Shown here piece after piece: positions 13,308-18,332 of a DNA stretch of 64,000 nt; positions within the stretch are counted from its first letter, which is position 1, and the number at the start of each line of letters is the position of its first letter. Under the pieces are notes generated by a model, which worked only from the letters and a program-made list of their open reading frames with translations, ran no database searches and was not told the DNA's origin. The position numbers and the translations under genes are program-made. Origin of the DNA: Escherichia coli (GTDB lineage Bacteria; Pseudomonadota; Gammaproteobacteria; Enterobacterales; Enterobacteriaceae); the NCBI RefSeq assembly GCF_016026235.1, contig NZ_CP065613.1; one strand, given 5' to 3'.

Positions 13308-13353
13308 TCAAGGCCGGAAAAGATGCGTCAGCATCGCATCCGGCACTTACTCA

Positions 13354-14838
13354 TTAATGCACTTCCAGCGGCCAGTGGACATAGCTCTGCCACTGGCTTT
13401 CCTGAGCAATAATCTCTTTACCCAGCGGATGTTGGGTTAGCCAACCTTGCGGAAGCGTCAAGGTCAACAGTTCATGGTTAGCCTGTAATGTCATCTCTGG
13501 CACGAGATCGTCACGGCGACGGCTGGCAAAAATGATGGCCAGGCGTAGTAAACGGCAGAGTTGTTCTGCGACGCGCGGCGGTACGGCATTTTGCTGATGC
13601 AGCGATGAGAGATCGACCGGATTAGTCTGGTTGAGCAGTAGCGTCGCCAGCAATTTTTTCTGTGCGGGGGTAAAACCGGGAAGATCCAGATTACGCACCA
13701 GATAAGCAGCGTGTTGCGGCGCTTGTTTGAAGTCAACGCTCAGGCCGATTTCATGAAGCTGACAGGCGCTGATGAGCAAATCGCGGCTTATTGCTTCAAG
13801 ATGCCATTCGTTTTCCACCTGATCGAAGAAGTTAGCCGCAACTTTGGCTACGCGCTGTGCCTGATCAATATCGATCATAAAGCGGCGTTGAATATTACGC
13901 AGCGTACGGCTGCGAATATCCTGGTCTACGGCCAGATGCAACATGCCGTAGACCAGGCCTTCACGCAGCGCACCGCCCGCCAGGGTCATACACTGAATAT
14001 TCAGTTCGGTAAAAATGGCGATCAGGATCGCCAGACCACTCGGGAACACTAACGCACGTTCCAGCGTCAGCCCGTCAATCTCCAGTTCCTCCAGCCGACC
14101 GCAATGAATGGCTCGCTGTTTCAATTGCTGCAACTTTTCCAGGGTAATGCGTTCATCCATCCCCTGTGCCATCATGATTTCCTGTAACGCCTGCACGGTG
14201 CCGGAAGCACCAACGCACACTTTCCAGCCGTGATACCGTAATTCATCGGCAACCGGACGTAACACTTCGCGTGCCGCTTTTTCTGCAGCATCAAAATTTT
14301 CCTGCCCCAGATTACGATCGGCAAAATAGCGTTCCAGCCAGGTGACGCAGCCCATCGACAGGCTGAACAACGAGGTGGTTTGTGCACCCGTGCCGGTTAC
14401 CAGTTCAGTACTGGCTCCGCCTATATCCACCACCAGGCGCTGATCGGCACCACCAGTGGTGTGAGCAACGCCCTGATAAATCAGACGTGCTTCCTCTTCA
14501 CCGCTGATCACCTGTACCGGACAACCGAGAATTTCCTGCGCTTTGGCAATAAAATCACCCGCATTGACGGCAAGGCGTAACGTCGCCGTAGCGACAACGC
14601 GAATTTGCGAGGGAGGAATATCTTGCAGACGTTCAGCAAACAGGCGCAAACATTGCCAACCGCGCTCCATTGCTTCATTGGAGAGGGCATTTTCGCTATT
14701 CAGGCCAGCAGCCAGACGCACTTTGCGTTTTATTCGCGTCAGCGTCTGGATGCTTCCAGCCACCTCGCGCACAACCAGCATATGAAAACTATTCGAACCG
14801 AGATCAATGGCTGCATACAGCGACGAGGTGGAACCCAT
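13354..14838 (-). CDS. gpp: guanosine pentaphosphate phosphohydrolase / exopolyphosphatase
   Basis: Track ORF 13354..14847; recalled GppA begins [20 protein letters not shown] (494 aa), so start placed at 14838; start choice +/- 9 nt. Confidence 0.9.
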
Positions 14839-14883
14839 ACTCTTCATCCTTCAATCTGTCTCTGTGTTGGCTGCATTCTTTCA

Positions 14884-14915
14884 CCTGAATCACTTACTAC
14901 AGTAAGTGATTCAGG
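14884..14915. repeat. perfect palindrome (15-bp arms, 2-nt centre) between rhlB stop and gpp start
   Basis: CCTGAATCACTTACT-AC-AGTAAGTGATTCAGG read directly; no flanking T-run. Confidence 0.7.
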
Positions 14916-14971
14916 ATTCATTCTCCTGCCATCTTGATACAGTTTGAATGATTTTGAGTATGACATTTTAT

Positions 14972-16237
14972 TTAACCTGAACGACGACGATTACGCGGAG
15001 CGCCAGTACGACGCGGACCATTGCCTGTACGTGGGCGCGTGAGGCGCAGCGGTTTTGGCAGATCGGTCATCAATGCGTCCGGATTGTATTTGCTTACCGG
15101 AATTGAGTGACCAATATAGGTCTCAATAGCAGGCAAATTCAATGCATACTCTTCACACGCCAGGCTGATAGAGTGACCGCTTGCGCCTGCGCGACCTGTA
15201 CGACCAATACGGTGAACGTAATCTTCACAGTCATCGGGTAAATCGTAGTTAAAGACGTGCGTCACTGCCGGAATATGCAAACCACGCGCGGCAACGTCGG
15301 TGGCAACCAGAATATCCAGATCGCCACGGGTAAATTCATCAAGAATACGCAGACGTTTTTTCTGCGCGACATCGCCTGTCAACAAACCGACACGATGACC
15401 ATCTGCCGCCAGGTGGCCCCAGATCTCTTCACAACGGTGTTTGGTGTTGGCGAAAATAATCGCTCTGTCTGGCCACTCTTCTTCGATCAGCGTTTGCAGC
15501 AAACGCATTTTTTCTTCGTTAGAAGGGTAGAAAAGCTCTTCTTTAATACGGTGGCCCGTTTTCTGTTCCGGTTCCACTTCAATATATTCGGCATTGTTCA
15601 TCTGCTCGAACGCCAGTTCACGTACCCGGTACGAAAGCGTGGCGGAGAACAGCATGTTGAGGCGCTGGTTTGCAGGCGGCATACGGCGGAACAGCCAGCG
15701 GATATCTTTAATAAAGCCCAGATCGTACATGCGATCGGCTTCGTCCAGTACCACCACCTGAATGGCACCGAGGTTAATGTGGTTCTGCTTGGCGTAGTCA
15801 ATTAAACGCCCCGTGGTGCCAATCAGAATGTCAACGCCGCTTTCCAGCACTTTCAGCTGTTTGTCGTAACCATCACCACCGTAAGCCAGACCCAGCTTCA
15901 GGCCGGTAGCTTCCGCCAGCGGTTCCGCATCGGCATGGATCTGCACGGCAAGTTCACGCGTCGGTGCCATAATTAAGGCACGCGGCTGATTCACCTTGCG
16001 ATCGACAATCGCGGGATGAGAGAGAAGATAATGAAACGTTGACGTAAGAAACGCCATCGTTTTCCCGGTACCGGTTTGCGCCTGCCCGGCTACGTCACGA
16101 CCCGCCAGCGTCAGCGGAAGGGCCAGTGCCTGAATGGGCGTACAGTTATGAAACCCTTTTTTTTCAAGGGCTTCTACAACCTTCGGATGCAGGGCGAAGT
16201 CGGAAAACTTCTGTTCTGTTAAATGTGTTTTGCTCAT
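14972..16237 (-). CDS. rhlB: DEAD-box RNA helicase RhlB
   Basis: 421-aa ORF; [18 protein letters not shown]..., AQTGTGKT and DEAD (VLDEADRM) motifs. Confidence 0.95.
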
Positions 16238-16367
16238 AGTGTGGTAGAATATCAGCTTACTATTGCTTTACGAAAGCGTATCCGGTGAAATAAAGTCAAC
16301 CTTTAGTTGGTTAATGTTACACCAACAACGAAACCAACACGCCAGGCTTATTCCTGTGGAGTTATAT

Positions 16368-16697
16368 ATGAGCGATAAAATTATTCACCTGACTGACGAC
16401 AGTTTTGACACGGATGTACTCAAAGCGGACGGGGCGATCCTCGTCGATTTCTGGGCAGAGTGGTGCGGTCCGTGCAAAATGATCGCCCCGATTCTGGATG
16501 AAATCGCTGACGAATATCAGGGCAAACTGACCGTTGCAAAACTGAACATCGATCAAAACCCTGGCACTGCGCCGAAATATGGCATCCGTGGTATCCCGAC
16601 TCTGCTGCTGTTCAAAAACGGTGAAGTGGCGGCAACCAAAGTGGGCGCACTGTCTAAAGGTCAGTTGAAAGAGTTCCTCGACGCTAACCTGGCGTAA
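16368..16697 (+). CDS. trxA: thioredoxin 1
   Basis: ATG at 16368 inside track ORF; [37 protein letters not shown] (WCGPC active site), 109 aa. Confidence 0.97.
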
Positions 16698-18296: not shown

Positions 18297-18332
18297 CAAA
18301 AACGCCACGTGTTTACGTGGCGTTTTGCTTTT
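18297..18332 (+). terminator. rho-independent terminator after rho
   Basis: AAAAACGCCACGTG-TTTA-CGTGGCGTTTT hairpin followed by T-rich tract. Confidence 0.8.

Follow-up and report, generated by a model that had tools for sequence, protein, structure and literature searches.

The perfect 32-bp palindrome between rhlB and gppA in this Escherichia coli genome is, as judged by alignment, the central inverted repeat of an ERIC element (also called IRU or RU-1), a 127-bp MITE-like imperfect palindrome. The whole explanation, in which one arm of the ERIC core was perfected by a template switch and the element acts as RNA, is very probably right. The kind of feature is already known, for the palindrome is the core of a repeat family recognised since 1990-91, with a few dozen members in E. 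coli; the family is said to have been described, under the names ERIC, IRU and RU-1, by Sharples and Lloyd in 1990, by Hulton, Higgins and Sharp in 1991 and by Wilson and Sharp in 2006. The only parts that would go beyond the textbook are a conserved candidate coupling open reading frame (ORF) and the rebuilding of the gppA start that this ORF implies.

The palindrome and its surroundings

On the plus strand, positions 14884-14915 of the window (the whole stretch of DNA that was analysed, 64 kb) read CCTGAATCACTTACT-AC-AGTAAGTGATTCAGG. Repeat finding confirmed the perfect 15-nt arms of the original prediction: 14884-14898 and 14901-14915 are 100% complementary across a 2-nt spacer. An exhaustive scan found this to be the longest perfect inverted repeat of the 64-kb window, the runner-up having arms of 12 nt. 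The judgment that the arms are unusually long for chance was also sound. Arms of at least 15 nt with a spacer of 0-6 nt have an analytic expectation of ~4e-4 per window, and 60 first-order shuffles of the window produced a maximum arm of 13 nt, once. The palindrome is real and not a chance product. Folded as RNA, the core is predicted to form a perfect 14-bp stem with a UGUA loop (dG -20.5 kcal/mol), in which 6 of the 14 pairs are G-C.

Equivalog-type NCBIfam models are matched by both RhlB and GppA and bear out the placement originally given, 3′ of rhlB and 5′ of gpp (gppA) with both genes on the minus strand. The gene order in the window (rep, gpp, rhlB, trxA, rhoL, rho) is that of K-12, and the region was matched in 5,424 of 5,426 complete E. 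coli genomes. The genes and the repeat that fills the spacer between them are as follows.

13354..14838, minus strand: gppA, guanosine pentaphosphate phosphohydrolase, 494 aa, start MGSTSSLY (NCBIfam NF008260, 978 bits; K-12 annotation)
14972..16237, minus strand: rhlB, degradosome DEAD-box helicase, stop codon TAA at 14972-14974 (NCBIfam NF003419, 869 bits)
14836..14962, minus strand: complete ERIC/IRU element, 127 nt (ungapped consensus alignment; nhmmer profile; alignment with other copies)
14884..14915, minus strand: core inverted repeat of the ERIC element (the ERIC1R and ERIC2 primer sites align here)

Identity of the element

The palindrome stands as first described, but only its tip had been seen: the whole 133-nt spacer is one long imperfect palindrome. 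The ERIC element fills this spacer as a 127-nt imperfect palindrome with the 32-bp palindrome at its apex. It is oriented as the rhlB to gppA transcript, and its final three bases are the gppA start codon.

Several lines of evidence support the assignment. The 127-nt E. coli ERIC consensus of Wilson and Sharp (2006), taken from Delihas (2007; PMC2759123), where it is quoted reverse-complemented, aligns without gaps to 14836-14962 on the minus strand at 89 of 127 positions (70%), and to the K-12 copy at 94 of 127 (74%). The reverse orientation of the consensus gave no alignment. The ERIC1R and ERIC2 primers, whose sequences appear in 233 papers, align onto the palindrome at 14884-14915 and onto the sequence flanking it. 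The copy also has the TIR-like ends CATACTC/GAGTATG. The ends of ERICs are flanked by a 5′-TA-3′ target duplication; the flanks here are CA/TG as against TA/TA in other copies, a difference compatible with one substitution per side.

Additional copies come from a nhmmer profile built from orthologous rhlB-gppA spacers. With it, another full-length copy, which is not orthologous, was detected between rhlB and trxA in several Citrobacter species (for example, locus L019, positions 527-655, E = 5e-21). When the Citrobacter rhlB-trxA copy was used as the query, 3-7 places were matched per E. coli genome, and those inspected were the hsdM-hsdR, queA-acpH, puuR-puuC, and rhlB-gppA spacers. The queA-acpH copy has one mismatch to each ERIC-PCR primer. 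ERIC copies are 72-83% identical to one another, and the pattern TACACAAAATCATTCA...GCATCAAGGCGGCAAG...GAATCCC..GAGCTTAC...GTAAGTGA..GGGTGAG..CGCAGCCAAC...TTGAAGGATGAAGTGTATA is common to all that were aligned. No further ERIC copy was found with the nhmmer profile within the 64-kb window.

Rfam contains no ERIC family, and nothing in the spacer reached an Rfam gathering score. The only notable sub-threshold match was to V_AS5 (RF02818), full-length at 24.6 bits versus 96. The consensus sequences of V_AS5 and ERIC are 78% identical and align with a score of 91, versus 14.7 +/- 5.4 for shuffles, so V_AS5 looks like a Vibrio relative of ERIC. The idea that V_AS5 sits in the Vibrio rhlB-gppA spacer was rejected because the gap there in V. 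cholerae is only 7 bp (PMC7552824).

The element as RNA

Transcription of rhlB and gppA has been described in more than one way. The two genes are reported to be cotranscribed in E. coli (PMC9239193), and the element would therefore be transcribed in the sense orientation. A bicistronic rhlB-gppA transcript has been proven in V. cholerae, across its 7-bp gap (PMC7552824). In the same study, E. coli gppA is regarded as a monocistronic gene whose promoter is predicted to lie in the spacer (PMC7552824), which would make part of the element promoter DNA or 5′ UTR. A consensus scan found no sigma-70-like site in the rhlB-gppA spacer. Literature searches returned nothing on ERIC together with gppA and rhlB, and only a Dickeya transcriptome paper on rhlB, gppA, and RNase III together.

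In mRNA sense (the minus strand), the predicted fold of the spacer is one long hairpin that takes in nearly all 133 nt, with an MFE of -49.6 kcal/mol and z = -7.3 versus shuffles. The base of this hairpin includes CAUACUC, just past the rhlB stop codon, and involves the gppA start signals.

14956..14962, minus strand: 5′ strand of the basal helix, CAUACUC, the left end of ERIC (predicted fold; orthologue alignment)
14836..14842, minus strand: 3′ strand of the basal helix, GAGUAUG, including the gppA AUG and pairing with 14956-14962 (predicted fold; orthologue alignment)
14847..14852, minus strand: gppA Shine-Dalgarno sequence GAAGGA, in the conserved ERIC 3′ end (TTGAAGGATGAAG) (predicted pairing with UCAUUC)

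Orthologue comparison reveals a compensatory A-U to U-A change in the basal helix CAUACUC/GAGUAUG. Among 17 full-length orthologues, the 35 pairs of the hairpin are 95.8% paired and two-sided changes are seen in 6 of them, compared with 31-44% pairing in slid controls. This covariation is no proof of selection on RNA structure, because template switching can make compensatory changes at the level of DNA.

Partition-function folding indicates how the gppA start might be controlled. In free RNA, the gppA AUG has a probability of 0.00 of being unpaired, against 0.71-0.84 with the 5′ arm occupied. The Shine-Dalgarno sequence is mostly paired in free RNA and has a probability of 0.51-0.57 of being unpaired with the 5′ arm blocked. 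A ribosome parked at the rhlB stop codon opens the gppA start only partly in these models. Taken together, the predictions suggest that the element acts as RNA, as a cotranscribed hairpin of ~125 nt that base pairs both the Shine-Dalgarno sequence and the AUG of gppA. Given this pairing, ribosomes arriving from rhlB probably have to open the hairpin before GppA can be translated. Opening would occur most plausibly through translation of a 40-codon ORF that spans the element (see below).

A second effect may be on mRNA stability. De Gregorio et al. reportedly described, in 2005, ERICs at the 3′ ends of Yersinia enterocolitica genes. Yersinia ERIC hairpins are reported to modulate mRNA stability, in that ribosomes remodel the hairpin and an RNase E site is exposed (PMC2229807, PMC3184786, PMC10969869). 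By analogy, the hairpin studied here may also, via RNase E, determine how stable the two halves of the mRNA are relative to each other.

A stronger claim of this type is that the palindrome is a dedicated RNA processing or stability element, maintained by selection, and that its perfect version is an adaptive strengthening. Such an element could be a site for RNase III or RNase E, or a barrier to 3′-exonucleases that protects the rhlB mRNA. The original prediction had leaned toward an RNA stem-loop for processing or stability; in this it agrees with the present analysis, which places a predicted RNA stem-loop in a transcribed spacer, but it missed that the stem-loop is a known ERIC core. The strong predicted hairpin, the cotranscribed spacer, and the precedent of Yersinia ERICs that lie 3′ of genes and alter mRNA levels when an RNase E site is unmasked (PMC2229807, PMC10969869) are all consistent with a dedicated role. 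Against it, no other part of the spacer varies as much within E. coli as the apex, which is also the part of the element that is deleted most often (in frame in E. albertii, C. gillenii, and Citrobacter 18056) and which has its perfect form in only 2.5% of genomes. Moreover, large internal loops isolate the 14-bp stem from the next helix, a poor geometry for RNase III. A dedicated, selected element is accordingly unlikely, and an ERIC hairpin with a variable apex is the preferred reading.

Origin of the perfect arms

In K-12 and most other E. coli, the core reads CCCGATGAGCTTACT-GT-AGTAAGTGATTCAGG in mRNA sense, with four mismatches and one G-U wobble among the 15 arm positions. A 60-bp query found the perfect core in 133 of the 5,424 complete E. 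coli genomes (~2.5%), and the remaining ~97.5% have imperfect cores that are 83-90% identical. Conservation among relatives, the check first proposed for the palindrome, thus fails for the perfect form, given that K-12 and ~97.5% of E. coli are imperfect. Carriers of the perfect core include O145:H28, O169:H41, O157:H16 Santai, and an ST361 strain, and the rewritten arm is also found in a Shigella dysenteriae allele. No complete E. coli genome has an exact match to the 60-bp core query of the window; the best matches differ at one base outside the palindrome, the C at 14926.

The direction of change can be read from outgroups. An arm of the form CCCGATG(A/G)(A/G)C is present in the Escherichia clades, E. 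albertii, Citrobacter, Salmonella diarizonae, Kluyvera, and Klebsiella. The imperfect core is ancestral, because all outgroups share the K-12-type arm. By these alignments, the perfect core is confined to a minority E. coli lineage.

14907..14913, plus strand: rewritten tract, presumed template switch (alignments versus K-12 and outgroups)

Relative to K-12 and the outgroups, the window carries five substitutions, at 14907, 14908, 14909, 14910, and 14913, all in one arm and within 7 bp. Each of the five creates the Watson-Crick complement of the partner base in 14884-14898, and neither arm has any other change. The rewritten arm even matches an A in the partner arm that is specific to E. coli (GTGATTCAGG). 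A combinatorial estimate gives P ~1.4e-6 for five independent changes all doing so. We infer from this pattern, the hallmark of a template switch within a quasipalindrome, that such a mutation occurred; the mechanism has been documented in E. coli (PMC7202029). A single template switch during replication of the quasipalindrome would have copied the gppA-proximal arm onto the rhlB-proximal arm.

The same five changes could in principle have arisen as independent point mutations selected for pairing or by gene conversion from another ERIC. ERIC copies, at 72-83% identity, are similar enough for occasional ectopic conversion, and other multi-base apex variants exist in E. coli. Both routes are nevertheless improbable. 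The new arm is an exact complement of its local partner, including the E. coli-specific A in GTGATTCAGG, and five independent hits of this kind have P ~1e-6. As for conversion, the CCTGAATCAC tract was in none of the other ERIC copies examined, which argues against an ectopic donor, and the 60-bp core query matched a median of one place per genome.

Perfecting the apex appears to strengthen the tip alone. The predicted apex dG is -20.5 kcal/mol in the window and -7.8 kcal/mol in K-12, compared with -20.2 kcal/mol for the ERIC consensus. On the basis of these folds, the change is most likely a neutral or mildly modulating polymorphism. With a template switch as its source, it would be a clean natural example of quasipalindrome mutation, in which five linked substitutions arise in one event that tree-building and SNP-calling would miscount as five. 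Such an event also illustrates that “compensatory” changes in a hairpin are possible without selection on RNA structure.

Insertion at the rhlB-gppA junction

A genome scan for GppA yielded 80 Enterobacteriaceae species loci, 77 of which have enough upstream sequence for comparison. The element is lacking from 54 of these 77 loci, where only 3-11 nt separate the rhlB stop from the gppA ATG, and is present at identical junctions in the other 23. Carriers are Escherichia, some Citrobacter, Salmonella diarizonae, one Kluyvera, Klebsiella, one Lelliottia, and Intestinirhabdus, as well as Raoultella terrigena, which has an extra insertion. Filled and empty junctions occur within each of Citrobacter, Salmonella, Kluyvera, Raoultella, and Lelliottia. 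The element thus displays presence/absence polymorphism among the Enterobacteriaceae loci aligned.

Because the junction is tight in 54 of 77 loci and also in V. cholerae, the tight rhlB-gppA junction is taken to be ancestral and the 135-bp E. coli spacer to be an insertion. This accounts for the length of the E. coli spacer compared with 3-11 nt in most Enterobacteriaceae and 7 bp in V. cholerae. It also corrects the view of the spacer as the sign of an independent gppA promoter.

The empty junction, as seen in S. arizonae, is ATG CTA AAT TCT ACC, and the filled junction is ATGC-CA-[TACAC...GTGTA]-TG-AAT TCT ACC. On the most economical path between the two, the element would have inserted at the TA in codon 2, and each side would then have acquired one substitution.

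A candidate coupling ORF

The filled junction leaves an ATG upstream of the element, at the position of the ancestral gppA initiation site, and this ATG opens a reading frame across the repeat.

14844..14966, minus strand: 40-codon ORF, candidate coupling ORF (ORF translation; cross-genus comparison)

The ORF starts 5-8 nt past the rhlB stop codon, 5 nt in the window, and ends at a UGA 5 nt ahead of the gppA AUG. Three internal stop codons are present in this frame of the ERIC consensus and none in the rhlB-gppA copy. Read by eye, the hsd and puu ERIC copies have a TGA at “AAG TGA” in the same frame.

The reading frame stays open to within ~16 nt of the gppA AUG in 23 of 25 element-bearing sequences (the 23 species loci, the window, and K-12). 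Two of the loci (L054 and L073) were read by eye, and a third (L047), where the ORF has 38 codons after a 1-nt insertion, was translated separately. The ORF survives in-frame indels in several lineages: a 21-nt deletion in E. albertii, two 45-nt deletions at different positions, and a 30-nt insertion in Intestinirhabdus, where a TAA in that position ends the frame. Only the R. terrigena/Enterobacter sp. 10-1 allele, with its ~73-nt insertion, has a broken ORF. Within E. coli, it is open in 10 of 10 sequences (eight sampled genomes, K-12, and the window).

Two statistical tests addressed this openness. When the substitutions of each lineage were placed at random, the joint probability that the ORF would stay open by chance was ~0.009 over seven lineages. 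In a variant-by-variant test on the consensus background, stop-creating substitutions were not depleted (4 of 107 versus ~6.8 expected). Since the sequence of the peptide drifts, translation rather than the product would be the target of any selection. That the ORF has been kept open across genera suggests, as a hypothesis, translational coupling of gppA.

These observations can be assembled into a tentative scenario, one that is possible but short of probable. An ERIC would have inserted into codon 2 (CTA) of a gppA gene coupled to rhlB, the repeat would have rebuilt the gppA start, and the ORF would keep the coupling. Before insertion, gppA would have been translationally coupled to rhlB across a gap of a few nucleotides. 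The ERIC 3′ end would have supplied a ready-made Shine-Dalgarno sequence (GAAGGA), and the new AUG would have come from the terminal A of ERIC together with a target duplication mutated from TA to TG. From the original start site, now orphaned, ribosomes would then translate the 40 codons through the element, melting the hairpin that buries the gppA ribosome-binding site. Synthesis of GppA, a stringent-response enzyme, would in this way stay coupled to that of RhlB, the degradosome helicase. Should the coupling ORF prove real, the site at which translation of a stringent-response gene begins would have been remade by a mobile repeat.

A different possibility is that the 40-aa ORF encodes a functional peptide, as is implied by its GenBank name in many genomes, “addiction module toxin RelE.” Gene callers applied this name widely, but identity with RelE was rejected, because the ORF has no Pfam match even at E = 10 and no NCBIfam match. 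The sequence, moreover, drifts freely between genera and tolerates deletions of 7-15 residues and an insertion of 10. A functional peptide is very improbable, and the “RelE toxin” label would be a propagated mis-annotation of an ERIC reading frame.

Terminator and operator readings

It is similarly very improbable that the palindrome is the intrinsic terminator of rhlB. A stable stem does lie 56 nt past the rhlB stop codon. On the minus strand, however, the stem is followed by UGAAAGAAUGCAGCC, in keeping with the earlier remark that there is no T-run and no simple intrinsic terminator, and the reading fails because the sense strand has no U-run. Just 6 of 14 stem pairs are G-C, rhlB and gppA are reported to be cotranscribed (PMC9239193), and the sole terminator-like call in a scan is antisense, on the plus strand, with a weak ATTCATTCTC tail.

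The other suggestion of the original prediction, a DNA operator for a dimeric regulator of gppA, would explain the perfect dyad symmetry 46 bp upstream of the gppA start codon but is scarcely credible, because one half-site is unconserved (5 of its 15 positions are different in ~97.5% of E. coli and in every other genus) and the element is missing from most relatives (54 of 77 species, where gppA is still expressed directly behind rhlB), and in addition the same core recurs within ERIC in unrelated spacers, no promoter-like site overlaps the palindrome, and no family-specific motif emerged.

Comparison with known systems

The element shares with the ERIC family its length of 127 nt, similarity to the consensus from end to end, the core repeat targeted by the primers, and the ends CATAC...GTATG. 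Like other members, it lies between genes and is transcribed, and its RNA is predicted to form a long stem-loop. It differs in three respects. Its arms are perfectly complementary, whereas the consensus and K-12 cores have internal mismatches; the flanking TA dinucleotides are CA and TG; and the three forward-frame stop codons of the consensus are all missing. Compared with the Vibrio RNA AS5 family (Rfam RF02818, V_AS5), the window scores far under the 96-bit threshold.

The perfected arm resembles the quasipalindrome mutations studied by Ripley and by the Lovett laboratory (PMC7202029), with the same cluster of substitutions in one arm and every mismatch converted to the complement. The known cases come from laboratory reporters (lacZ, thyA), whereas this one would be a natural polymorphism fixed in several E. 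coli lineages. Those lineages are represented by O145:H28, O169:H41, and Shigella dysenteriae-like alleles.

As RNA, the closest parallel is with the ERICs of Yersinia enterocolitica, which likewise lie a few nucleotides past a stop codon and are cotranscribed with both neighbours (PMC2229807, PMC10969869). The proposed mechanism is also shared, in that ribosomes would remodel the hairpin and change which RNA is exposed. The outcomes differ: in Yersinia, RNase E reportedly cleaves and the upstream mRNA is destabilised, and in the model proposed here the downstream ribosome-binding site would be unmasked.

Translational coupling through a masking hairpin is well known from the MS2 coat-replicase pair and from E. 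coli termination-reinitiation operons. As in those systems, the Shine-Dalgarno sequence and AUG would be sequestered by sequence that upstream ribosomes traverse. Here, the upstream ORF ends 5 nt ahead of the downstream AUG. What would set the rhlB-gppA case apart from classical coupling is the source of its parts, as the predicted masking helix and the Shine-Dalgarno sequence both come from a mobile repeat and the candidate coupling ORF is mostly that repeat read in one frame.

Variation within Escherichia coli

The apex of the ERIC element in the rhlB-gppA spacer is a hotspot of multi-base variants within E. coli, as seen in the population alignment of the element (A2) at mRNA-sense positions matching window 14895-14915. 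Variants at this site include GAGCTTACT, GAGCATACT, GAGCGTACT, GCGCATGCT and GAGTTTACTGTC. Unlike the apex, the basal helices are invariant in the same alignment. Some of the apex variants may be further products of template switching, the presumed copying of one core arm onto the other. A separate change is private to the window: position 14926 (+) is C, versus T in K-12 and in each of the 5,424 complete E. coli genomes with a match, and this substitution converts codon AAG of the ERIC reading frame to AGG. Because of this private C, no complete E. coli genome is exactly identical over the 60 bp around the core. The window may derive from a Shigella or from an E. coli lineage that has not been sampled.

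The 40-residue reading frame

In many E. coli, Shigella and Salmonella genomes, the ERIC reading frame carries the GenBank label "addiction module toxin RelE".

Window 14844-14966, - strand: 40-aa ERIC reading frame (protein clusters P0001-P0018)

Pfam and NCBIfam profile searches with the 40-aa product returned no match, and the RelE label looks like an annotation error that has been propagated. An rhlB-gppA ERIC split by a G+C-rich insert of ~73 nt is shared by Raoultella terrigena and Enterobacter sp. 10-1; in both, this extra segment cuts the frame after 19 codons.

Raoultella terrigena, L050 ~1609-1818: insert-bearing rhlB-gppA ERIC
Enterobacter sp. 10-1, L058 ~1791-2000: insert-bearing rhlB-gppA ERIC

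ERIC copies in other spacers

In several Citrobacter species the spacer between the divergent genes rhlB and trxA holds another full-length copy of ERIC, found alike whether the rhlB-gppA site is filled or empty.

Second Citrobacter ERIC copy (compared loci, - strand of each)
L019 527-655
L018 390-518
L027 522-649
L024 522-646
L022 391-515
L029 391-516

Matches to ERIC at the rhlB-trxA position in Klebsiella and Raoultella are partial and weaker. A further copy, oriented as in rhlB-gppA, occupies the E. coli queA-acpH spacer (L091 601-723). Its 3' terminus reads ...GAAGGATGAAGTGTAT|ATGAATTTT, and the acpH start codon therefore directly adjoins the end of the element, with the GAAGGA of this copy at Shine-Dalgarno distance from that start. 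The ERIC 3' end may be a portable ribosome-binding site, used by more than one gene.

Other features of the window

Window 16298-16397, + strand: TrxA 5' UTR thermometer (Rfam RF02773), upstream of trxA; 78.8 bits against a gathering score of 58
Window 18299-18326: perfect palindrome AAAACGCCACGTGTTTACGTGGCGTTTT, 12-nt arms, 16 nt past the rho stop codon
Window 13312-13373: REP-like palindrome GCCGGAAAAGATGCGTCAGCATCGCATCCGGC, between rep and gppA, which converge with 46 bp separating their stop codons

The palindrome after rho has an A-run on one flank and a T-run on the other, and looks like a bidirectional intrinsic terminator. The rep-gppA gap gives a weak, sub-threshold Rfam match to naRNA4 (26 bits, E = 0.15).

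Comparison with a Vibrio RNA family

Rfam types V_AS5 (RF02818, "Vibrio RNA AS5") as antisense. The family was compared with window 14840-14963 (- strand). Its consensus and that of ERIC are 78% identical, and V_AS5 seems to be an ERIC-like repeat of Vibrio, not the gene of one particular antisense RNA.
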